Assembly: GCF_024298765.1 (NCBI RefSeq)
Contig: NZ_CP101210.1
Reading direction: 5' to 3' (one strand)
DNA: 64,000 nt
Source: Escherichia coli
GTDB taxonomy: Bacteria; Pseudomonadota; Gammaproteobacteria; Enterobacterales; Enterobacteriaceae
Part shown: positions 4,921 to 20,294 of the stretch, one piece after another
How positions within the stretch are numbered: the stretch's first letter is position 1
Layout: each line of letters opens with the position of its first letter
Made by a program: the position numbers and the translations under genes
Notes under the pieces: generated by a model
What the model was told of the DNA's origin: nothing
The model's database searches: none
Seen by the model: the letters and a program-made list of their open reading frames with translations, nothing else

Positions 4921-7320
4921 ATGAAGCTAACCGATGCGGATAATGCCGCCGATGGCATTTTTTTCCCCGCCCTTGAGCAAAATATGATGGGCGCGGTGTT
5001 AATTAACGAAAATGATGAAGTGATGTTTTTCAACCCCGCCGCAGAGAAGCTCTGGGGGTACAAACGTGAAGAAGTCATTGGCAATAACATTGATATGCTG
5101 ATTCCGCGGGATTTGCGTCCTGCGCATCCTCAATACATTCGTCACAACCGTGAAGGTGGTAAAGCTCGCGTCGAGGGGATGAGTCGGGAGCTGCAGCTGG
5201 AGAAAAAAGACGGCAGTAAAATCTGGACCCGTTTTGCGCTATCGAAAGTGAGCGCCGAGGGGAAAGTTTATTACCTGGCGCTGGTACGGGATGCCAGCGT
5301 AGAAATGGCGCAAAAAGAACAGACCCGACAATTGATTATTGCCGTTGACCATCTCGACCGACCGGTGATTGTCCTCGATCCGGAACGCCATATTGTGCAG
5401 TGCAATCGCGCATTTACCGAAATGTTTGGTTACTGCATTAACGAAGCCAGCGGTATGCAGCCCGATACACTCCTGAACATTCCAGAATTCCCTGCTGATA
5501 ACCGTATTCGTTTACAGCAGTTGCTATGGAAAACCGCCCGCGATCAGGACGAATTTCTGCTGTTGACGCGCACCGGTGAAAAAATCTGGATTAAAGCCTC
5601 TATCAGCCCGGTTTATGACGTGCTCGCGCATCTGCAGAACCTGGTAATGACATTCTCGGATATCACCGAAGAAAGGCAAATCCGCCAGCTTGAAGGCAAT
5701 ATTCTCGCCGCCATGTGCAGCAGCCCCCCATTTCATGAAATGGGGGAAATCATTTGTCGTAACATCGAATCTGTTCTCAACGAATCGCATGTTTCGCTGT
5801 TCGCGCTGCGCAACGGGATGCCGATACACTGGGCGTCATCTTCGCACGGTGCAGAAGTTCAAAATGCGCAAAGCTGGTCAGCGACCATTCGTCAGCGCGA
5901 TGGCACGCCTGCGGGGATCCTGCAAATTAAAACCTCGTCAGGAGCAGAAACCAGCGCCTTTATCGAACGCGTGGCAGATATCAGCCAGCATATGGCCGCG
6001 CTGGCGCTGGAACAGGAAAAAAGCCGTCAGCATATTGAACAACTCATCCAATTTGATCCGATGACCGGTCTGCCAAATCGCAATAACCTGCACAATTACC
6101 TCGATGACCTGGTCGACAAAGCCGTCTCTCCGGTGGTGTATCTCATCGGTGTTGACCATATTCAGGATGTGATTGATAGCCTTGGCTATGCGTGGACCGA
6201 TCAGGCATTGCTGGAAGTGGTCAATCGCTTTCGTGAAAAACTCAAACCGGATCAGTATCTCTGTCGTATTGAAGGTGCGTCTTTTGTCCTCGTGAGCCTG
6301 GAAAACGATGTCAGTAACATTACCCAGATCGCCGATGAGCTACGGAATGTGGTCAGCAAGCCGATAATGATTGACGATAAACCATTCCCGCTCACCTTGA
6401 GCATTGGCATCAGCTACGACGAGGGTAAAAACCGCGATTACCTGCTCTCCACTGCTCACAATGCAATGGATTTTATTCGCAAAAATGGCGGTAACGGCTG
6501 GCAGTTCTTCAGCCCGGCGATGAACGAAATGGTAAAAGAGCGTTTGGTTTTAGGCGCAGCGCTAAAAGAAGCGATTAGTAATAACCAACTTAAACTGGTT
6601 TATCAGCCGCAAATCTTCGCAGAAACGGGTGAACTGTACGGCATCGAAGCCCTTGCTCGCTGGTACGATCCCCTGCATGGTCATGTGCCCCCTTCACGGT
6701 TTATTCCTCTCGCAGAAGAGATTGGTGAAATCGAAAATATTGGGCGCTGGGTCATCGCGGAAGCTTGCCGTCAGTTAGCAGAATGGCGTAGCCAGAATAT
6801 TCATATCCCGGCGTTATCCGTTAACTTGTCTGCGCTGCACTTTCGCAGTAATCAGCTGCCTAATCAGGTATCTGATGCAATGCACGCCTGGGGTATTGAC
6901 GGCCACCAGCTGACGGTGGAAATCACGGAAAGCATGATGATGGAACACGATACCGAAATCTTTAAGCGCATTCAGATCCTGCGCGATATGGGCATCGGTT
7001 TATCGGTAGATGATTTTGGTACAGGCTTTTCCGGATTATCCCGCTTAGTCAGTCTTCCGGTAACGGAAATCAAAATTGATAAAAGTTTTGTCGATCGTTG
7101 TCTGACCGAAAAACGCATCCTTGCCTTACTCGAAGCCATTACCAGCATTGGGCAAAGCCTCAATTTAACCGTCGTGGCGGAAGGCATCGAAACCAAAGAG
7201 CAATTTGAGATGCTACGCAAGATCCACTGTCGCGTTATTCAGGGATATTTCTTTTCCCGCCCCCTGCCCGCCGAAGAAATTCCAGGCTGGATGAGCAGCG
7301 TGTTACCGCTGAAAATCTGA
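4921..7320 (+). CDS. dosP: Heme-PAS c-di-GMP phosphodiesterase DosP (PAS-GGDEF-EAL)
   Basis: ORF track gives 4897..7320; start moved to the ATG at 4921 (RBS gaggtaa 6 nt upstream), giving the 799-aa product; degenerate GGDEF plus an EAL domain (EAL at EALAR); forms an operon with dosC. Confidence 0.9.
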   Translation: MKLTDADNAADGIFFPALEQNMMGAVLINENDEVMFFNPAAEKLWGYKREEVIGNNIDMLIPRDLRPAHPQYIRHNREGGKARVEGMSRELQLEKKDGSKIWTRFALSKVSAEGKVYYLALVRDASVEMAQKEQTRQLIIAVDHLDRPVIVLDPERHIVQCNRAFTEMFGYCINEASGMQPDTLLNIPEFPADNRIRLQQLLWKTARDQDEFLLLTRTGEKIWIKASISPVYDVLAHLQNLVMTFSDITEERQIRQLEGNILAAMCSSPPFHEMGEIICRNIESVLNESHVSLFALRNGMPIHWASSSHGAEVQNAQSWSATIRQRDGTPAGILQIKTSSGAETSAFIERVADISQHMAALALEQEKSRQHIEQLIQFDPMTGLPNRNNLHNYLDDLVDKAVSPVVYLIGVDHIQDVIDSLGYAWTDQALLEVVNRFREKLKPDQYLCRIEGASFVLVSLENDVSNITQIADELRNVVSKPIMIDDKPFPLTLSIGISYDEGKNRDYLLSTAHNAMDFIRKNGGNGWQFFSPAMNEMVKERLVLGAALKEAISNNQLKLVYQPQIFAETGELYGIEALARWYDPLHGHVPPSRFIPLAEEIGEIENIGRWVIAEACRQLAEWRSQNIHIPALSVNLSALHFRSNQLPNQVSDAMHAWGIDGHQLTVEITESMMMEHDTEIFKRIQILRDMGIGLSVDDFGTGFSGLSRLVSLPVTEIKIDKSFVDRCLTEKRILALLEAITSIGQSLNLTVVAEGIETKEQFEMLRKIHCRVIQGYFFSRPLPAEEIPGWMSSVLPLKI

Positions 7321-7333
7321 TAAATTCCTCTCG

Positions 7334-7352
7334 CCCGCACTCGCGGGTTTTT
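7334..7352 (+). terminator. Rho-independent terminator after dosP
   Basis: Hairpin cccgc-actc-gcggg followed by ttttt, 14 bp after the dosP stop. Confidence 0.75.
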
Positions 7353-7445
7353 ATTTAACGTGACACTGTCACTTAAATACTGTGATTTCCGCTACGTTTA
7401 GTTGGACAACGACAACGCATAGCCATGTCACAACAATCCCTTCTC

Positions 7446-7505
7446 AGCCTGATGTGATTGTGCTGACGCATCAGGCAATCACGCGCCTGACGCGTCATCC
7501 GGCAA
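7446..7505. repeat. REP-like palindromic element(s) in the dosP-osmC spacer
   Basis: Imperfect palindromes cctgatg...catcagg and gcctgacgcgtcatccggca resemble the REP consensus; located where the ddp operon sits in K-12. Confidence 0.5.
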
Positions 7506-7509
7506 CACT

Positions 7510-7941
7510 TTACGATTTCAACTGGTAATCAAGCGTAATTTCAGCTTTCAGTACCTGAGAAACCGGGCATCCTGCTTTTGCTTTCTGGATAATGCCGTCA
7601 AAAGTAGAGGCATCAATACCCGGCACCGCAACTTCGCTTTTCAGTGCGATTTTAGTAATCGCAAAACCGGCATCCACTTTATCCAGCGACACATCTGCGG
7701 TGGTATCAATCGATGTTGGCGTGAATCCCGCTTCCCCCAGCATTAATGAAAGCGCCATTGAGAAACATGCGGCATGCGCTGCGCCAATCAGTTCTTCAGG
7801 GTTGGTTCCTTTTTCGCCTTCAAAACGCGTGTTAAATCCATACGGCTGTTGGTTCAGCACGCCGCTCTCGGTGGATACAGTTCCCTTCCCGCGTTTGATA
7901 TCGCCTTCCCAGTGTGCCTGACCTTTCTTATGGATTGTCAT
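7510..7941 (-). CDS. osmC: Osmotically inducible peroxiredoxin OsmC
   Basis: 143-aa ORF; OsmC/Ohr family; translation recognised. Confidence 0.93.
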   Translation of the reverse strand: MTIHKKGQAHWEGDIKRGKGTVSTESGVLNQQPYGFNTRFEGEKGTNPEELIGAAHAACFSMALSLMLGEAGFTPTSIDTTADVSLDKVDAGFAITKIALKSEVAVPGIDASTFDGIIQKAKAGCPVSQVLKAEITLDYQLKS

Positions 7942-8285
7942 TGTTGCTCTCCTGTGGGCTTAAAAAGGAAATTATAGACTACGTGAGAAACAGCACGAGG
8001 ATAAGCAGGATATTCCGAATAAAATCCGGCGAAAACATTATCTCTGTACTTAAATTAAATTCCCACAATAGATAACAGGAAATATATGACTCAAAAGATA
8101 TTGTATCAATATTAATCGATTCACACCAATAACAATCCCTATCAATATCATAGTGTTAAAATATAAAACTCATCAACCAGGACTAATCTTAACAACGAAG
8201 CGGCAAATATTTGCCATGCTGAATGTGCTTTATAAATCTGCGATCCGTAGCAGACACCATAAATACACAGACACGGAGAATCACT

Positions 8286-8501
8286 ATGTTTACTTATTAT
8301 CAGGCAGAAAATTCAACAGCAGAACCCGCTCTGGTTAATGCCATTGAGCAAGGCCTTCGGGCAGAGCACGGTGTTGTCACTGAAGATGACATTCTCATGG
8401 AGCTGACCAAATGGGTGGAAGCTTCTGATAACGACATCCTCAGTGATATCTACCAGCAAACGATCAATTATGTGGTCAGTGGCCAGCACCCTACGCTTTA
8501 A
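8286..8501 (+). CDS. bdm: Biofilm-dependent modulation protein Bdm
   Basis: 71-aa product from the internal ATG at 8286 (MFTYYQAENSTAEP...); the ORF-track entry 8223..8501 is an upstream extension. Confidence 0.85.
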   Translation: MFTYYQAENSTAEPALVNAIEQGLRAEHGVVTEDDILMELTKWVEASDNDILSDIYQQTINYVVSGQHPTL

Positions 8502-8602
8502 GGTGCTATGCTTGATCGGCAACCTAATTTAGGGGTTTAGCACGTGTTTCTTCGCTACGGCGATGTTGTCCTTAAAACTAGCAACAGGATTGAGGAGTTA
8601 AA

Positions 8603-8740
8603 ATGAAATCGAACCGTCAGGCACGTCATATTCTTGGACTGGACCATAAAATTTCTAACCAGCGCAAAATAGTTACCGAAGGTGACAAATCCAGCGTGGT
8701 AAATAACCCAACCGGCAGAAAACGCCCCGCTGAAAAGTAA
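8603..8740 (+). CDS. sra: Stationary-phase ribosome-associated protein Sra (RpsV)
   Basis: 45-aa ORF ([22 protein letters not shown]...) with RBS ggag; below the ORF-track size cutoff; found by reading the bdm-maeA spacer. Confidence 0.85.
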
Positions 8741-8770
8741 TTCATAACCATCAGTCCTCAATGACGATTA

Positions 8771-8800
8771 AACACCATTGCCTGCGCAATGGTGTTTTTG
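8771..8800 (+). terminator. Rho-independent terminator after sra
   Basis: Hairpin aacaccattg-cctgcg-caatggtgtt followed by tttttgttttt. Confidence 0.7.
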
Positions 8801-8896
8801 TTTTTATCTGCTTTATACTTGGGGCCGACGCCCTGGCGGTAAAGCAAAGACGATAAAAGCACCCCAGGGATGGATATTCAAAAAAGAGTGAGTGAC

Positions 8897-10594
8897 ATGG
8901 AACCAAAAACAAAAAAACAGCGTTCGCTTTATATTCCTTACGCTGGCCCTGTACTGCTGGAATTTCCGTTGTTGAATAAAGGCAGCGCCTTCAGCATGGA
9001 AGAACGCCGTAACTTCAACCTGCTGGGGTTACTGCCGGAAGTGGTCGAAACCATCGAAGAACAAGCGGAACGAGCATGGATCCAGTATCAGGGATTCAAA
9101 ACCGAAATCGACAAACACATCTACCTGCGTAACATCCAGGACACTAACGAAACCCTCTTCTACCGTCTGGTAAACAATCATCTTGATGAGATGATGCCTG
9201 TTATTTATACCCCAACCGTCGGCGCAGCCTGTGAGCGTTTTTCTGAGATCTACCGCCGTTCACGCGGCGTGTTTATCTCTTACCAGAACCGCCACAATAT
9301 GGACGATATTCTGCAAAACGTGCCGAACCATAATATTAAAGTGATTGTGGTGACTGACGGTGAACGTATTCTGGGGCTTGGTGACCAGGGCATCGGCGGG
9401 ATGGGCATTCCGATCGGTAAACTGTCACTCTATACCGCCTGTGGCGGCATCAGCCCGGCGTATACCCTTCCGGTGGTGCTGGATGTCGGGACGAACAACC
9501 AACAGCTGCTTAATGATCCGCTGTATATGGGCTGGCGTAATCCGCGTATCACTGACGACGAATACTATGAATTCGTTGATGAATTTATCCAGGCTGTGAA
9601 ACAACGCTGGCCGGACGTACTGTTGCAGTTTGAAGACTTCGCACAAAAAAATGCGATGCCGTTACTTAACCGCTATCGCAATGAAATTTGTTCTTTTAAC
9701 GATGACATTCAGGGCACTGCGGCGGTAACAGTCGGCACACTGATCGCAGCCAGCCGCGCAGCAGGTGGTCAACTGAGCGAGAAAAAGATTGTCTTCCTCG
9801 GCGCAGGCTCTGCGGGGTGCGGCATTGCCGAAATGATCATCGCCCAGACTCAGCGTGAAGGATTAAGCGAGGAAGCGGCGCGGCAGAAAGTCTTTATGGT
9901 TGATCGCTTTGGCCTGCTGACCGACAAGATGCCGAACCTGCTGCCTTTCCAGACCAAACTGGTGCAGAAGCGCGAAAACCTCAGTGACTGGGATACCGAC
10001 AGCGATGTGCTGTCACTGCTGGATGTGGTGCGTAATGTAAAACCAGATATTCTGATTGGCGTCTCAGGACAGACCGGGCTGTTTACGGAAGAGATTATCC
10101 GTGAGATGCATAAACACTGTCCGCGTCCGATCGTGATGCCGCTGTCTAACCCGACTTCACGCGTGGAAGCCACACCGCAGGACATTATCGCCTGGACTGA
10201 AGGTAACGCGCTGGTCGCCACTGGCAGTCCGTTTAACCCAGTGGTATGGAAAGATAAAATCTACCCTATCGCCCAGTGTAACAACGCCTTTATTTTCCCG
10301 GGCATCGGGCTGGGCGTTATTGCTTCCGGCGCGTCACGTATCACCGATGAGATGCTGATGTCGGCAAGTGAAACGCTTGCTCAGTATTCGCCGCTGGTCC
10401 TGAACGGCGAAGGTCTGGTACTACCGGAACTGAAAGATATTCAGAAAGTCTCCCGCGCAATTGCCTTTGCGGTTGGCAAAATGGCGCAGCAGCAAGGCGT
10501 GGCGGTGAAAACGTCTGCCGAAGCTCTGCAACAGGCCATTGATGATAATTTCTGGCACGCCGAATACCGCGACTACCGCCGTACCTCCATCTAA
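8897..10594 (+). CDS. maeA: NAD-dependent malic enzyme
   Basis: 565-aa product from the ATG at 8897 ([18 protein letters not shown]...); malic enzyme family; the ORF-track start at 8870 is an N-terminal extension. Confidence 0.92.
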
Positions 10595-10600
10595 GCCTGC

Positions 10601-10630
10601 GCCCGGTGGTGAAAGCTGCCGGGCAATTTT
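10601..10630 (+). terminator. Probable terminator after maeA
   Basis: Hairpin gcccggtggtgaaagctgccgggc followed by aatttt. Confidence 0.55.
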
Positions 10631-10727
10631 CCTCTCCCTTTTTCAGATCTCATCCATACTGGGTAGTGGCGAATAAATCTCATTTGCCTCACCTGCTATG
10701 CAGAACATCATCCGAAAAGGAGGAACT

Positions 10728-11738
10728 ATGAAGGCTGCAGTTGTTACGAAGGATCATCATGTTGACGTTACGGATAAAACACTGCGCTCACTGAAACATG
10801 GCGAAGCCCTGCTGAAAATGGAGTGTTGTGGTGTATGTCATACCGATCTTCATGTTAAGAATGGCGATTTTGGTGACAAAACCGGCGTAATTCTGGGCCA
10901 TGAAGGCATCGGTGTGGTGGCAGAAGTTGGCCCAGGTGTCACCTCATTAAAACCAGGCGATCGTGCCAGCGTGGCGTGGTTTTACGAAGGATGCGGTCAT
11001 TGCGAATACTGTAACAGTGGTAACGAAACGCTCTGCCGTTCAGTTAAAAATGCCGGATACAGCGTTGATGGCGGGATGGCGGAAGAGTGCATCGTGGTCG
11101 CCGATTACGCGGTAAAAGTGCCAGATGGCCTGGACTCGGCGGCGGCCAGCAGCATTACCTGTGCGGGGGTCACCACCTATAAAGCGGTGAAACTGTCAAA
11201 AATTCGTCCCGGTCAGTGGATTGCTATCTACGGTCTTGGCGGTCTGGGTAACCTCGCCCTGCAATACGCGAAGAATGTCTTTAACGCCAAAGTGATCGCC
11301 ATTGATGTCAATGATGAGCAGTTAAAACTGGCAACCGAAATGGGCGCTGATTTAGCGATTAACTCACGCACTGAAGACGCCGCCAAAATTGTGCAAGAAA
11401 AAACCGGTGGCGCTCACGCCGCGGTGGTGACAGCGGTAGCTAAAGCTGCGTTTAACTCGGCGGTTGATGCTGTACGAGCAGGCGGTCGTGTTGTGGCTGT
11501 CGGTCTGCCGCCGGAGTCTATGAGCCTGGACATCCCACGCCTTGTGCTGGATGGTATTGAAGTGGTCGGTTCGCTGGTCGGCACGCGCCAGGATCTAACC
11601 GAAGCCTTCCAGTTTGCCGCCGAAGGCAAAGTGGTGCCGAAAGTCGCCCTGCGTCCGTTAGCGGACATCAACACCATCTTTACCGAGATGGAAGAAGGCA
11701 AAATCCGTGGCCGTATGGTGATTGATTTCCGCCGCTAA
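10728..11738 (+). CDS. adhP: Zn-dependent alcohol dehydrogenase (propanol-preferring)
   Basis: 336-aa product from the ATG at 10728 preceded by RBS aaaggagg; medium-chain dehydrogenase motifs (GHEGIG, Cys-rich Zn site). Confidence 0.92.
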
Positions 11739-11883
11739 GAGGCCTTTGCTGCGACTGCCATGTTTGGGTCGCAGCATCACACACTCTCCAACATGAAATG
11801 GCTAAATGGATTATTGTTGCGTAGGAAGGAACAATAATGATAGTGTTCCTGGTGAAGGAACGCTACTGAGAGTAAAGACACTA

Positions 11884-12168
11884 ATGAAAATGGCCAATCA
11901 TCCCCGCCCGGGGGACATTATTCAGGAATCACTGGACGAACTTAATGTCAGCCTGCGCGAGTTTGCCAGAGCAATGGAAATTGCGCCCTCAACGGCAAGC
12001 CGATTGCTGACCGGAAAAGCAGCTTTGACGCCAGAAATGGCGATTAAACTTTCCGTGGTGATCGGCAGTTCGCCGCAAATGTGGCTGAATCTGCAAAACG
12101 CCTGGAGCCTGGCAGAGGCTGAAAAAACGGTGGATGTGTCGCGACTGCGCCGTCTGGTTACGCAATAA
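11884..12168 (+). CDS. yddM: HTH (XRE/HigA-like) DNA-binding protein YddM
   Basis: 94-aa product from the ATG at 11884; helix-turn-helix region ([22 protein letters not shown]). Confidence 0.8.
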
Positions 12169-12175
12169 TAAATAT

Positions 12176-12199
12176 CCTCCGGCATAGCCGGAGGTTTTT
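12176..12199 (+). terminator. Rho-independent terminator after yddM
   Basis: Hairpin cctccgg-cata-gccggagg followed by ttttt. Confidence 0.7.
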
Positions 12200-12202
12200 C
12201 AA

Positions 12203-12875
12203 ATGCGCCTATAAGGCTCTCTTACCAGCCGCGCCCTAACAGGCGCACACGATCTGACATTTGCATCCAACTTCGTTACTTACGGCCCGTAAACGGGCTG
12301 CCCGGATAGGGAATCGATAACTGCTCTCCCATTTTATCCTCTTCAAGCTGGTGCTTTATGTAATCCTGTATCTTCGCCGTGTTCTTACCCACCGTATCGA
12401 CGTAGTACCCTCTGCACCAGAACTCTCTGTTCCTGTATTTGAATTTCAAATCACCAAACTGCTCGTAAAGCATCAGACTGCTTTTCCCTTTCAGATATCC
12501 CATAAAGCCGGATACACTCATTTTGGGCGGGATCTCCACAAGCATATGGATATGATCTGCACAGCATTCAGCTTCAAGAATCCGTACGCTTTTCCACTCA
12601 CACAGCTTTCTCAAAATACTGCCTATTGCTCTACGCTTCTCTCTGTAGAACACTTGTCTTCGGTATTTTGGCGCAAAAACTATGTGATATTTACAGTTCC
12701 ATCGGGTGTGCGCTAAGCTCTTTTCGTTCCCCATTGGGACCCCCTTTTGATTTCTTGTTTGACACTTGCAGTTGCCAGACCGCAAGGTGTTTTAACAAAT
12801 CAAAAGGGGTTTTAATAACTGGCTCAAAGCTGAAAGCTTTCCGGAACCCCCAGCCTAGCTGGGGGTTTTCTGTGC
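12203..12875 (-). mobile_element. IS200 insertion sequence (IS200/IS605 family); boundaries approximate
   Basis: Contains the Y1 (HUH) transposase gene, an RBS-sequestering stem upstream of tnpA, and the left-end hairpin (aaacccccagctaggctgggggtt on the minus strand, + coordinates 12843..12870); ends not mapped to the base. Confidence 0.8.
12276..12734 (-). CDS. tnpA: IS200 transposase TnpA (Y1 HUH transposase)
   Basis: 152-aa product starting MGNEKSLAHTRWNCKYHIVFAPKYRR with the HIHMLVEIPP (HuH) motif; recognised as essentially the Salmonella/E. coli IS200 TnpA. Confidence 0.9.
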   Translation of the reverse strand: MGNEKSLAHTRWNCKYHIVFAPKYRRQVFYREKRRAIGSILRKLCEWKSVRILEAECCADHIHMLVEIPPKMSVSGFMGYLKGKSSLMLYEQFGDLKFKYRNREFWCRGYYVDTVGKNTAKIQDYIKHQLEEDKMGEQLSIPYPGSPFTGRK

Positions 12876-12878
12876 ACA

Positions 12879-12909
12879 AAAAAATGGCGCTTCTTAAAGC
12901 GCCATTTTC
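12879..12909 (-). terminator. Rho-independent terminator of the fdnGHI operon
   Basis: On the minus strand, hairpin aaaatggcgctttaagaagcgccatttt followed by a T-run, 20 bp past the fdnI stop. Confidence 0.7.
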
Positions 12910-14472: not shown

Positions 14473-17400
14473 TTACGCCTTCTCGATGTTGACTAAGAAC
14501 GCTTTATATTCCGGCGTTTGCGAGTTTGCATCACCGACATTCGGCGTCAGAGTGTTAGCGATATAACCTTTACGCGCGACACCCTCAAAGCCCCAGTGGA
14601 TTGGAATACCCACCGTTTCAACCTGCTGACCGTTTACATTCAGCGGTTTCAGACGGCGCGTTACCACAGCCACCGCGCGGATAAAGCCACGCTTGCTGGA
14701 GACAGTGACACGATCGCCATTGGCAATGCCTTTCGCCGCCGCCAGCGTTTCGCTGATTTCCACAAACTGTTCCGGCTGAGCAATTGCGTTGAGCAATGCG
14801 TGCTTGGTCCAGGTGTGGAAGTGCTCGGTCAGACGATAGGTCGTACCCACATACGGGAACTGCTCTTTTTTACCCATCCGCAGCGCGTCTTGTTCATACA
14901 GACGAACAACCGGGTTAGACACCACGTTCGGATGCAGCGGGTTAGTGCCCAGCGGCGTTTCGATTGGCTCGTAGTGTTCCGGGAACGGACCTTCCGCCAT
15001 TTTGTTGATGGCAAACAGGCGTCCCATCCCTTCCGGCTGCATGATAAACGGCCCGGTTGGCGTACCCGGTGCGGCATTGCCGAAGTCCGGAATATCGTTA
15101 CCCGTCCACTTGCTGCCGTTCCACTGGATCAGCATCCGTTTCGGATCCCACGGTTTACCGTTGATATCCGCCGAAGCACGGTTGTACAGCACGCGACGGT
15201 TGAGCGGCCACGCCCAGGCCCATCCCAGCGTATTCCCCAGACCGGACGGGTCGGAGTTATCGCGGTTAGCCATCTGGTTGCCCTGCTCTGTCCAGCTACC
15301 GGTGTAGATCCAGCAAGAAGATGCGGTTGTACCATCATCACGCAGATGCGCAAAGCTACTCAGCAACTGACCTTTCTTCGCAATCAGCACGCCATTAGCG
15401 TCATAGAGATCTTCCAGCGCATAGCCGTTGTTCTCTTTCGCCACTTCGTCAGATTGCGGTTCGTGCGGCTGCTTGTAGTTCCAGCTCATCTTCATCAGCG
15501 GTTCTACGCCTTTACCACCCTCGGCCTGGTACAGCTCGCGCAGATGATGGTAGATACCCGCCAGAATTTCGCCGTCGTTACGTGCTTCGCCCGGCGCGTC
15601 CTGACCTTTCCAGTGCCACTGCAACCAGCGACCGGAGTTAGCAATAGAACCATCTTCTTCAGCAAAGCAGGTCGAAGGCAGACGGAATACTTCAGTCTGA
15701 ATGGACGCCGGATCGACATCGTTCGACTCGCCGTGGTTCTGCCAGAAGGTAGAGGTTTCAGTCACCAGCGGATCGATAACCACCATGTACTTCAGCTTGC
15801 TCAGGCAGCTCACCACTTTGTTTTTGTCCGGGAAGGACGCAACCGGGTTAAAGCCCTGGCAGAAATAACCGGTGACTTTGCCTTCGTCCATCATGTTGAA
15901 ATACTTGATGACGTCGTAGGTCTGGTCCCACTTCGGCAGCCAGTCGTAGCCCCAGTTGTTCTCTTTTTGCGCGGCATCGCCGTAGAAAGATTTCATCAGG
16001 CTAACGAAGAACTTCGGATAGTTGCTCCAGTAGTTCACCTGATCAGCCAGCGTCGCTTTCGGCGTATTCGCTTCCAGATACGACTGCAAATCAACCTGTT
16101 TTTCTGACGGCAGCGTCAGATAACCCGGCAGGCTGGTTGAGAGCAGACCTAAGTCGGTCAGGCCCTGAATGTTGGAGTGACCACGCAATGCGTTCACGCC
16201 GCCACCGGCCATACCCATGTTACCGAGCAGCAACTGGATCATCGCCATAGTACGGATGTTCTGCGCACCCACGGTGTGCTGCGTCCAGCCCAGCGCGTAC
16301 AGGAAGGTGGTTGTGCGATCCGGTGCGCTGGTGGAGGCCAGCACTTCACACACTTTCAGGAAGTCGGCTTTTGGCGTACCGCAGATGTTTTCTACTACGT
16401 CCGGCGTGTAGCGGGAAACGTGCGCTTTCAGCAGGTTCCACACACAGCGCGGATGAGTCAGTGTTTCATCGCGTTTCGCATAGCCGTTTTCATCGAACTG
16501 ATAGTTCCAGGACGATTTATCGTATTGCCGTTTTTCAGCGTCGTAGCCGCTGAACAGACCGTCTTCGAAAGCAAAATCATCACGCACCAGCAGGCTGGCG
16601 TTGGTGTAATGCTTAACGTATTCGGCGTTGATTTTGTTGTTTTCGATCAGGTAGCGCAAAACGCCAGACAGGAACGTAATGTCCGTACCGGAACGAATAG
16701 GTGCGTAAATATCCGCCACAGAAGCGGTACGCGTAAAACGGGGATCGACAACGATCAAGGTTGCATCGTTGTTGTTTTTCGCTTCCATCGCCCAGCGGAA
16801 ACCGACGGGATGCGCTTCAGCAGCGTTACCGCCCATCACCATTACGACGTTAGCGTTTTTGATATCCACCCAGTGGTTGGTCATCGCACCGCGACCAAAT
16901 GTTGGAGCAAGACTTGCTACCGTTGGTCCGTGTCAGACGCGCGCCTGGTTGTCTACCGCCAGCATCCCGAGGGAGCGGGCAAATTTTTGAGTCAGCATCC
17001 CGGTTTCGTTGCTGGCACCGGAGGCACACAGCATACCGGTAGAAAGCCAACGGTTTACCGTTACGCCCTGCTCGTTCTTTTCAATAAAGTTAGCGTCACG
17101 GTCAGCTTTCATCAGCTTCGCAATACGGGAGAATGCTTCTTCCCAGCTAATGCGCTGCCATTTGTCAGAACCTGGCGCACGATATTCCGGGTAGCGCAGA
17201 CGGTTTTCGCTGTTGACGTAATCCAGCAAACCGGCCCCTTTCGGGCACAGCGCACCACGGCTTACCGGATGATCCGGGTCACCTTCAATGTGATAAATCG
17301 CTTCTCTGGCGTTTTTCGCGCCATCACCCAGGCTATACATCAATAGCCCGCAACCTACGGAACAGTATGTGCAGGTGTTACGGATCTCTTTCGCGCGTAA

Positions 17401-17520
17401 TAATTTGTAGTTTCGCGCCTGAGCCAGTGCTTGCTTCGGGGCAAAGCCCAATGCTGCTACTGTTGTTCCCGCCATACCGCCCGCGCAGATTTTAAAAAAT
17501 TGTCTGCGACTGACGTCCAT
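14473..17520 (-). CDS. fdnG: Formate dehydrogenase-N catalytic alpha subunit (selenoprotein, molybdopterin enzyme)
   Basis: Two consecutive in-frame ORFs (16933..17520 and 14473..16884) joined across a single in-frame TGA at 16933..16935, giving a 1015-aa protein; Tat signal peptide (SRRQFFK); TGA followed by a SECIS-like hairpin. Confidence 0.92.
16890..16935 (-). promoter_or_regulatory. Selenocysteine recoding site of fdnG: UGA codon plus 3' SECIS-like stem-loop
   Basis: mRNA reads UGA-CAC-GGA-CCA-ACG-GUA-GCA-AGU-CUU-GCU-CCA...; a stem-loop lies immediately 3' of the UGA, at the position typical of bacterial SECIS elements. Confidence 0.7.
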
Positions 17521-17639
17521 TGCTTTCCTCTTTTTTCAGGGGTATTACTGCGCGAGGAAACTAACAGTAAAATTCTGAATCTTTTTGCGCGAAATCAAAA
17601 AGAACACGTGTTTGCCACAAAATAATCCGCCTGCGCAAA

Positions 17640-17653
17640 TTGACCTACCTCAA
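17640..17653. promoter_or_regulatory. Candidate FNR box in the fdnG-yddG divergent promoter region
   Basis: ttgacctacctcaa matches TTGAT-N4-ATCAA at 8 of 10 positions, about 125 bp upstream of the fdnG start codon; distance to the transcription start unknown. Confidence 0.3.
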
Positions 17654-17751
17654 TAGCGGTAGAAAAACGCACCACTGCCTGACAGGCCAGTTAAAAAAAT
17701 GCTATAAAATTCAGCTTAATTTTTAACGGCAAGAGAGACAAAACAGCGAGC

Positions 17752-18633
17752 ATGACACGACAAAAAGCAACGCTCATAGGGCTAATAGCGATCGTCCTGT
17801 GGAGCACGATGGTAGGATTGATTCGCGGTGTCAGTGAGGGACTCGGCCCGGTCGGCGGCGCAGCTGCTATCTATTCATTAAGCGGGCTGCTGTTAATCTT
17901 CACGGTTGGATTTCCGCGTATTCGGCAGATCCCGAAAGGCTATTTACTCGCCGGGAGTCTGTTATTCGTCAGCTATGAAATCTGTCTGGCGCTTTCCTTA
18001 GGGTATGCGGCGACCCGTCATCAGGCGATTGAAGTGGGGATGGTGAACTATCTATGGCCCAGCCTGACAATTCTCTTTGCCATTCTGTTTAATGGTCAGA
18101 AAACCAACTGGCTGATTGTACCAGGATTATTATTAGCCCTGGTCGGCGTCTGCTGGGTGTTAGGCGGTGACAATGGGTTACATTATGATGAAATTATCAA
18201 TAATATCACCACCAGCCCATTGAGTTATTTCCTGGCGTTCATTGGGGCGTTTATCTGGGCAGCCTACTGCACAGTAACGAATAAATACGCACGCGGATTT
18301 AATGGAATTACCGTTTTTGTCCTGCTAACGGGAGCAAGTCTGTGGGTTTACTATTTTCTTACGCCACAACCAGAAATGGTATTTAGCACGCCCGTCATGA
18401 TTAAACTCATCTCTGCGGCATTTACCTTAGGATTTGCTTATGCTGCATGGAATGTCGGTATATTACATGGCAACGTCACCATAATGGCGGTAGGTTCGTA
18501 TTTTACGCCCGTCCTTTCCTCAGCGCTTGCAGCCGTGCTGCTCAGCGCCCCGCTGTCGTTCTCGTTCTGGCAAGGCGCGCTAATGGTCTGCGGCGGTTCC
18601 CTGCTCTGCTGGCTGGCGACACGTCGTGGCTAA
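17752..18633 (+). CDS. yddG: Aromatic amino acid exporter (DMT superfamily)
   Basis: 293-aa ORF; 10-TM EamA-like membrane protein; divergent from fdnG. Confidence 0.9.
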   Translation: MTRQKATLIGLIAIVLWSTMVGLIRGVSEGLGPVGGAAAIYSLSGLLLIFTVGFPRIRQIPKGYLLAGSLLFVSYEICLALSLGYAATRHQAIEVGMVNYLWPSLTILFAILFNGQKTNWLIVPGLLLALVGVCWVLGGDNGLHYDEIINNITTSPLSYFLAFIGAFIWAAYCTVTNKYARGFNGITVFVLLTGASLWVYYFLTPQPEMVFSTPVMIKLISAAFTLGFAYAAWNVGILHGNVTIMAVGSYFTPVLSSALAAVLLSAPLSFSFWQGALMVCGGSLLCWLATRRG

Positions 18634-18905
18634 AATAATTGTCGGGTCTACGGCCCGGCAGTTAATCAGATAAACTCTGACAATATTAAAAAATAAATTT
18701 CAAATACCAGAAAGTCATTTTAGTTACATTTAGTAACACATATCTGTCTGTTTAATCCACATTCTGCCCCCGCAGTTACGCTTTCTTATCTATTCTTCTA
18801 ATCAGCACTTCACCTGATTCATCCTTAATTCTAATAACTGGCTATTGCGCCTTACCTCCTGTTTTGTCTTTTTTTCATTACCAATGTGTGCATGTGAGGA
18901 ACAAT

Positions 18906-20294
18906 ATGGCACTGCAAAATGAGAAAAATAGTCGTTATCTTTTACGCGACTGGAAACCAGAAAATCCGGCCTTCTGGGAAAATAAAGGAAAGCACATTGC
19001 ACGAAGAAACCTCTGGATATCAGTCAGTTGTCTACTTCTTGCCTTCTGTGTCTGGATGCTATTTAGCGCAGTTACTGTTAATCTCAATAAAATCGGTTTT
19101 AATTTCACTACCGATCAACTCTTTTTATTAACCGCATTACCCTCCGTTTCTGGCGCATTATTGCGTGTCCCCTACTCCTTTATGGTGCCTATATTCGGTG
19201 GACGCCGATGGACGGTTTTTAGTACTGCAATCCTGATTATTCCTTGCGTCTGGCTCGGAATTGCCGTGCAAAATCCGAATACCCCTTTTGGGATATTTAT
19301 CGTTATCGCTTTGCTATGCGGTTTTGCAGGTGCGAACTTTGCTTCGAGCATGGGCAATATCAGTTTCTTCTTTCCAAAAGCCAAACAAGGGAGCGCTCTT
19401 GGGATTAATGGCGGATTAGGAAACTTAGGTGTAAGTGTGATGCAGCTGGTTGCACCGCTGGTCATTTTTGTCCCCGTATTTGCCTTTCTCGGCGTCAATG
19501 GCGTACCGCAGGCCGACGGTTCGGTGATGTCGCTGGCGAATGCCGCATGGATTTGGGTGCCATTACTGGCGATTGCCACGATCGCCGCCTGGTCAGGGAT
19601 GAATGATATCGCCAGTTCACGCGCCTCAATTGCCGACCAGCTGCCAGTGTTACAACGCCTGCATCTCTGGCTGCTGAGCCTGCTTTACCTTGCCACCTTC
19701 GGTTCGTTTATCGGTTTTTCTGCGGGTTTTGCCATGCTGGCGAAAACTCAGTTCCCTGATGTGAATATTCTGCGCCTGGCGTTCTTTGGCCCATTTATTG
19801 GTGCCATCGCGCGGTCGGTTGGTGGTGCTATTTCCGATAAATTCGGCGGCGTGCGGGTGACGTTGATCAACTTTATTTTTATGGCGATTTTCAGCGCCCT
19901 GCTGTTCCTTACCTTACCGGGCACAGGCTCCGGTAATTTCATCGCATTTTACGCCGTATTTATGGGGTTGTTTCTGACCGCAGGTCTGGGAAGTGGTTCT
20001 ACTTTCCAGATGATCGCCGTCATCTTTCGCCAGATAACCATTTATCGGGTGAAGATGAAAGGCGGTAGTGATGAGCAAGCTCAGAGAGAAGCCGTCACCG
20101 AAACGGCGGCGGCTCTGGGCTTTATCTCAGCCATTGGCGCAGTGGGCGGCTTTTTCATTCCGCAGGCGTTTGGCATGTCGCTCAATATGACCGGCTCTCC
20201 GGTGGGCGCGATGAAAGTGTTTTTAATCTTCTACATCGTTTGTGTGCTGCTGACCTGGCTGGTTTATGGTCGGCGGAAGTTCAGCCAAAAATAA
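18906..20294 (+). CDS. narU: Nitrate/nitrite transporter (MFS, NarK family)
   Basis: 462-aa product from the ATG at 18906 (MALQNEKNSRYLLRDWKPENPAFWEN...); MFS membrane protein upstream of narZYWV. Confidence 0.9.
   Translation: MALQNEKNSRYLLRDWKPENPAFWENKGKHIARRNLWISVSCLLLAFCVWMLFSAVTVNLNKIGFNFTTDQLFLLTALPSVSGALLRVPYSFMVPIFGGRRWTVFSTAILIIPCVWLGIAVQNPNTPFGIFIVIALLCGFAGANFASSMGNISFFFPKAKQGSALGINGGLGNLGVSVMQLVAPLVIFVPVFAFLGVNGVPQADGSVMSLANAAWIWVPLLAIATIAAWSGMNDIASSRASIADQLPVLQRLHLWLLSLLYLATFGSFIGFSAGFAMLAKTQFPDVNILRLAFFGPFIGAIARSVGGAISDKFGGVRVTLINFIFMAIFSALLFLTLPGTGSGNFIAFYAVFMGLFLTAGLGSGSTFQMIAVIFRQITIYRVKMKGGSDEQAQREAVTETAAALGFISAIGAVGGFFIPQAFGMSLNMTGSPVGAMKVFLIFYIVCVLLTWLVYGRRKFSQK

Follow-up and report, generated by a model that had tools for sequence, protein, structure and literature searches.

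A compact yddG-narU spacer in Escherichia coli as a probable island-free allele of the O-island 62 site, with a candidate OmpR-type control region for narU

The interval between yddG and narU is a known variable locus of Escherichia coli. In O157:H7 EDL933 it holds O-island 62 (z2239-z2242), which has a GC content of 33-36% (Okeke et al. 2011, PMC3079680). The same work likened yddL and yddJ to the ends of O157 z2239 and z2242, treated the K-12 version as a related variant, gave no detailed description of a fully empty allele, and read the island as a recent import (PMC3079680). In the K-12 MG1655 genome (NC_000913.3), the order of genes is narU, the yddJ pseudogene (b1470), yddK (b1471), yddL (b1472) and yddG. 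Two further reports bear on the narU side of the interval. In K-12, OmpR bound at narUZYWV in a ChIP-exo experiment (peak P10, 1542224-1542283 in older MG1655 coordinates), and narU expression was 47-fold lower in an ompR knockout (log2 -5.56; PMC5438342 supplement). A ciprofloxacin-adaptive mutation in BW25113, T1538580C, was reported to raise narUZYWV expression (PMC11417348).

We compared these systems with one locus in the window, that is, the whole analyzed stretch of 64,000 nucleotides. Here yddG (17752-18633, plus strand) encodes an EamA/DMT aromatic amino acid exporter of 293 amino acids, as judged from the ORF, the Pfam EamA match and the yddG annotation in an identical genome; its product is 99% identical to K-12 YddG. 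The next gene on the same strand is narU (18906-20294, ATG at 18906), for a nitrate/nitrite transporter of the MFS class with 462 amino acids, and it is followed by narZ. Between the two lies an AT-rich spacer of 272 bp (18634-18905), with a GC content of 35.7% versus 52% in the surrounding 20 kb. A first-pass annotation of this DNA had given the same gene ends and the same AT-rich 272-bp spacer, and the ORFs and the GC content bear it out exactly. The two genes have the same orientation with zero genes between them, both in the ORF list and in the PGAP annotation of strain 104 (NZ_CP029164), which is 100% identical over the stretch and where yddG and narU are the only genes called.

When the window was aligned with K-12 by blastn, the homology on the yddG side ran up to 18717 (K-12, up to 1546203) and resumed on the narU side at 18720 (K-12, from 1544246). 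Thus 1956 bp in K-12, with 33.7% GC, stand where the window has two unaligned bases, 18718-18719. If fuzzy alignment ends are allowed for, the window-specific junction consists of the bases AAAGTCATTT (18711-18720). The alignment and the annotation agree with the earlier claim that yddL, yddK and yddJ lie between yddG and narU in K-12 and are missing here; yddG and narU are not adjacent in the K-12 reference.

The same break point, window 18710-18717 on one side and 18720 on the other, was found in K-12, O157, strain 405 and a variant with IS1, with collinear flanks, as for a single indel. The site, which lies between the 3' flank of yddG and the narU control region, is that of O-island 62 and yddL-yddK-yddJ, and its content differs greatly: 10 junction bases in the window, about 2 kb in K-12, about 2.5 kb in strain 405, and about 4.1 kb in O157. 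The O157:H7 allele carries a full-length gene for an OmpC-family porin, leucine-rich repeat (LRR) gene fragments and espR1, whereas strain 405 carries the porin gene plus LRR pseudogenes. In another strain, an IS1-associated deletion takes away the yddG end. A full porin gene together with low-GC LRR genes, including espR1, was seen in O157 and in phylogroup D/F strains. K-12 yddL matches residues 1-92 of the O157 porin at 100%. The K-12 state is a truncated remnant, in which yddL is the porin N-terminus and yddK and yddJ are LRR fragments.

The island genes are porin and LRR protein genes only, with no integrase or transposase among them. At the island ends in K-12, O157 and strain 405, we looked for target-site duplications and terminal inverted repeats; the only match, the 8-bp sequence CACATATC, is of the kind expected by chance. 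Alignment of the 10 junction bases is ambiguous at both island ends and does not settle whether the event was a deletion or an insertion.

Of 5426 complete E. coli genomes, 1123 have the compact junction within a single uninterrupted match; O25b:H4-ST131 and the Nissle strain EcN_Sk are two of them. Sequence that matches the K-12 segment was present in 4291 of the 5426, with 80% or more of the segment covered in 3131. We put a probability of about 0.8 on the reading of the spacer as an island-free allele of the O-island 62 site, a documented and ordinary polymorphism; this figure covers the whole explanation, namely the island-free allele, its origin by loss, and the narU control region. The compact junction noticed in the first-pass annotation is real; to that observation can be added that the locus is a documented variable one and that the site probably lost its content rather than never having been filled. 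The junction matters little alone; it can serve as a handy lineage marker, being present in about a fifth of the complete genomes. The present analysis goes beyond the known polymorphism in tracing yddL to a probable ancestral porin, in placing a candidate OmpR-type site and a -10-like block, and in noting that a K-12 regulatory position is missing here.

The narU-proximal 186 bp of the spacer are common to every E. coli allele and to divergent Escherichia lineages. We profiled the conservation of 260 bp upstream of narU over 23 divergent loci from Escherichia, Citrobacter, Enterobacter, Kluyvera and Raoultella. Only two non-coding blocks were conserved at 90% or more in the 23 loci: GTTACAnTTnGTAACAnnTA (18723-18743) and TTTnTTATCTATnCTT (18783-18797).

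The core of a 10-bp tandem repeat, TTAGTTACAT / TTAGTAACAC (18720-18739, plus strand), is among the positions conserved at that level, and the repeat is identical in K-12 over all 20 bp. It was picked up as a direct repeat and by its motif match: the half-sites are spaced by 10 bp and match GTTACA, and the repeat fits the published OmpR motif KWWGTTACAT / GTTACATTTTGTTACAT (Seo et al. 2017, PMC5438342). Like the OmpR-activated promoters of ompF, ompC and K-12 narUZYWV (PMC5438342), the window has tandem, 10-bp-phased half-sites near the consensus TTGTTACAT. These half-sites precede a poor -35 region and coincide in position with the K-12 narUZYWV ChIP-exo peak. There is one recognizable tandem pair in the window as against three at ompF and ompC. 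As to the position of the peak, the older coordinate version was confirmed at ompF only (offset +777), where the listed peak would otherwise fall inside coding sequence. For peak P10, we take the shift between the MG1655 versions to be +1976, which would put the peak at 1544200-1544259, with the tandem site of K-12, at about 1544246-1544227, near its center. By analogy with K-12, we regard 18720-18739 as a candidate OmpR binding site for activation of narU, and narU in this strain would be expected to depend on OmpR.

The second conserved block, TTTCTTATCTATTCT (18783-18797, plus strand), stands out by its conservation across genera and contains a -10-like hexamer, TATTCT (18791-18796), preceded by C. 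It may be the core promoter of narUZYWV. The -35 region of this putative promoter is poor. A scan of 18500-19000 for sigma-70 consensus promoters (at least 9 of 12 hexamer matches, spacing of 16-18 bp) returned 0 sites, which a poor -35 region in an activator-dependent promoter would explain; the result is consistent with an activator-dependent or a sigma-S type promoter. Transcription of narU would start near 18803, giving a leader of about 100 nt. Our literature search found no published narU transcription start, and the OmpR paper lists none for narUZYWV (PMC5438342). A conserved Shine-Dalgarno sequence, GAGG, is present at 18896-18899 (plus strand). That the spacer holds the narU promoter, as previously proposed, is most likely right, given the homology and conservation of the 186 bp, the OmpR-type site and the -10-like block.

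The retained spacer would then consist of about 85 bp of yddG 3' flank with a stem-loop, followed by the 186-bp narU control region. In the proposed control region, the tandem OmpR site at about -72 would be followed by a weak -35, the TATTCT -10 and the leader of about 100 nt, and narUZYWV would be transcribed from it under OmpR activation.

The yddG-proximal part of the spacer (18634-18717, plus strand) is homologous to the first 85 bp or so 3' of yddG in K-12 and O157, and the alignment showed no homology between it and the spacers of divergent Escherichia lineages. Just 3' of the yddG stop codon, folding revealed a stem-loop with a 13-bp stem (18636-18664, plus strand), common to K-12 and O157. 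It dominates the predicted fold of 18625-18725 (-26.2 kcal/mol, z = -4.8). The bases that follow the hairpin are AAUCAGAUAAAC, with no U-run, and a terminator scan found no intrinsic terminator in 18500-19000; the stem-loop was therefore rejected as a canonical intrinsic terminator.

For the history of the site, we scanned for outgroup loci with YddG, taking one genome per species, which gave 80 loci. No locus in the scan bore the name of E. albertii, E. fergusonii or one of the named cryptic species, and the close outgroups are three Escherichia lineages only. The gene that comes immediately after fdnG and yddG encodes a porin in Citrobacter, Salmonella enterica subsp. arizonae and diarizonae, Enterobacter and Lelliottia. 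Nearly all of these outgroup porins share 68-75% identity with the O157 porin, the value being about 60% in two Enterobacter species, and nucleotide homology sets in about 90 bp 5' of the porin ATG. The porin gene adjoining yddG in S. Typhimurium is reportedly ompD (Santiviago et al. 2002).

Between the porin gene and narU, many Citrobacter and some Enterobacter loci have a small ORF, an SmvA-family MFS gene on the opposite strand and a TetR regulator gene; this part of the order was readable only at loci where narU falls within the fetched flank. The yddG-porin-smvA-TetR-narU interval of Salmonella, Citrobacter and Enterobacter has the same flanking genes in the same orientation as the window. 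It also shares with the window the narU-proximal block, that is, the tandem GTTACA/GTAACA site and TTATCTAT. The window lacks about 4.5 kb of that interval: the porin gene, the small ORF, smvA and the TetR regulator gene.

Because a porin gene follows yddG in the outgroups, yddL is probably the stump of an ancestral porin gene, and the compact allele is likely to have arisen by loss. This outgroup gene order makes the porin part of O-island 62 ancestral, unlike the reading in PMC3079680, and we see the island as partly old core DNA in decay and not as a simple recent import. A plausible series of events would begin with an enteric ancestor whose interval held an OmpC-family porin gene, an smvA efflux gene and a TetR regulator gene. 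Escherichia would have lost smvA and its regulator, low-GC LRR genes would have come in, and the lineage of the window would later have lost everything, with ST131 and Nissle likewise empty.

The order of events might instead have been reversed: the compact spacer would be the original empty Escherichia site, and the porin and LRR island would have entered non-B2 lineages horizontally, K-12 having degraded it. The composition of the island (33.7-36% GC versus about 50% in the flanks) is what such an import might leave, and the LRR genes, at 32-33% GC, resemble type III effector genes. The porin gene itself, however, has 44% GC, not 33%, and the island is without integrase, transposase, target duplication or terminal repeat. 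Support for an originally empty site also comes from two divergent Escherichia lineages, L007 and L008, which are about 91-92% identical to the window, lack the island and have short spacers too; the yddG-proximal 95 bp or so of these spacers show no homology to those of the window. It comes as well from EcN_Sk, a compact allele whose flanks are 99.8% identical to K-12, and from the recent acquisition favored by Okeke et al. (PMC3079680). Against this, at least four other genera have a porin gene at this position and in this orientation, and its upstream DNA is homologous too; the porin state is therefore the older one. On balance we consider an originally empty site unlikely, and loss, inferred here from the outgroup gene order, the probable direction. 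EcN_Sk suggests that neither event was simple. Its junction (NZ_CP172017, 2581976-2583448), AAAGCCATTT, is the same as in the window, and its flanks are 96.9% identical to the window. On its narU side there are only two differences from K-12, both within 25 bp of the junction and both window-like. This very short mosaic points to recombination near the junction and is not what a simple deletion, or a simple insertion, would have produced. A mixed history is possible, with an ancestral porin gene, a later LRR insertion, and a later loss or re-import by homologous recombination.

Two other explanations touch on parts of the reading as an island-free allele with a narU control region. The conservation in the spacer could reflect an unannotated small gene or regulatory RNA instead of a promoter, as the strong stem-loop at 18636-18664 and the conserved non-coding blocks might suggest. 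No ORF of at least 30 amino acids lies wholly within 18634-18905, however, and when 17400-19400 was searched against Rfam at E <= 1, the spacer had no match, the sole match being a chance microRNA outside it. The conservation is limited to a 20-bp factor-type site, the 15-bp -10-like block and the ribosome binding site, and the stem-loop part is not kept outside E. coli; a small gene or RNA is thus very improbable. Assembly collapse or a recent strain-specific deletion, raised here as an a priori possibility and nothing more, is refuted by the uninterrupted match in 1123 complete genomes and by the presence of the junction on two flanking haplotypes 3% apart, and we give it practically no weight.

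The ciprofloxacin-adaptive position T1538580C of BW25113 precedes the narU ATG by 263 bp, which places it 77 bp inside island DNA and at the base of a hairpin, AACCCTT...AAGGGTT. In BW25113 (1538560-1538600), the hairpin AACCCTTTAGATTCACGATCTGAAGGGTT lies on the downstream side of the yddJ remnant. The -263 position has no equivalent in the window, and regulation that needs it cannot operate there. The mutation may weaken a terminator that would otherwise protect narU from transcription coming from upstream; this idea is ours and is not in PMC11417348. The loss of the island might also alter control of narUZYWV in B2-type and poultry-associated lineages. The -263 element would be gone, and the hairpin without a U-run might allow read-through from yddG into the nitrate reductase Z operon; we consider such an effect quite doubtful. 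The variant calls made for clinical isolates in the K-12 narU-yddJ interval (PMC11417348) map onto DNA that is missing from about a fifth of strains, and counts of upstream mutations in such surveys could be affected.

The outgroup loci gave two observations on neighboring DNA. In Escherichia sp. MOD1-EC7003 (6874-12876), homology to the window ends at the last codons of yddG (window 18625), and the genes that follow resemble nhoA, ansP, yncE and pqqU, as judged by eye from the translations. Because these genes follow yddG, narUZYWV and yddE would be absent from this lineage as a whole. In L008 (8555-8760), there is about 170 bp more DNA between narU and narZ than in the window.

Four differences from K-12 were found over the window: the absence of ddp genes, a 708-bp insert, the yddG-narU indel, and the segment 30021-43963. 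For the first, 66 bp at 7400-7465 replace K-12 1557101-1563254 (about 6.15 kb), so that ddpXABCDF is missing and dosP and osmC are joined. This ddp-less dosP-osmC junction was found in 1116 of 5426 complete genomes, a number nearly equal to the 1123 with the compact yddG-narU junction; the two are separate tallies. The 708-bp insert, between yddM and fdnI (12173-12880), is a copy of IS200C with an ORF for a Y1 transposase (12276-12734, minus strand), and is annotated as IS200C in identical genomes. An identical IS200C insertion is present in 308 genomes, many of them from poultry, with an O78:H4 APEC strain among them; this indicates the lineage that the window comes from. The absence of ddp, the IS200C copy and the identity of the shared segments to K-12, only 95.5-98.4%, uphold the earlier assignment of the window to a non-K-12 lineage. 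The segment 30021-43963, some 14 kb long, hardly matches the rhsE/ydcD/yncI region of K-12, if at all: only 672 bp align, at 92% identity. Upstream of yddG, fdnG (minus strand) is split into two ORFs, 16933-17520 and 14473-16884, by an in-frame TGA within 16885-16932, which we take to be the selenocysteine codon of formate dehydrogenase N.
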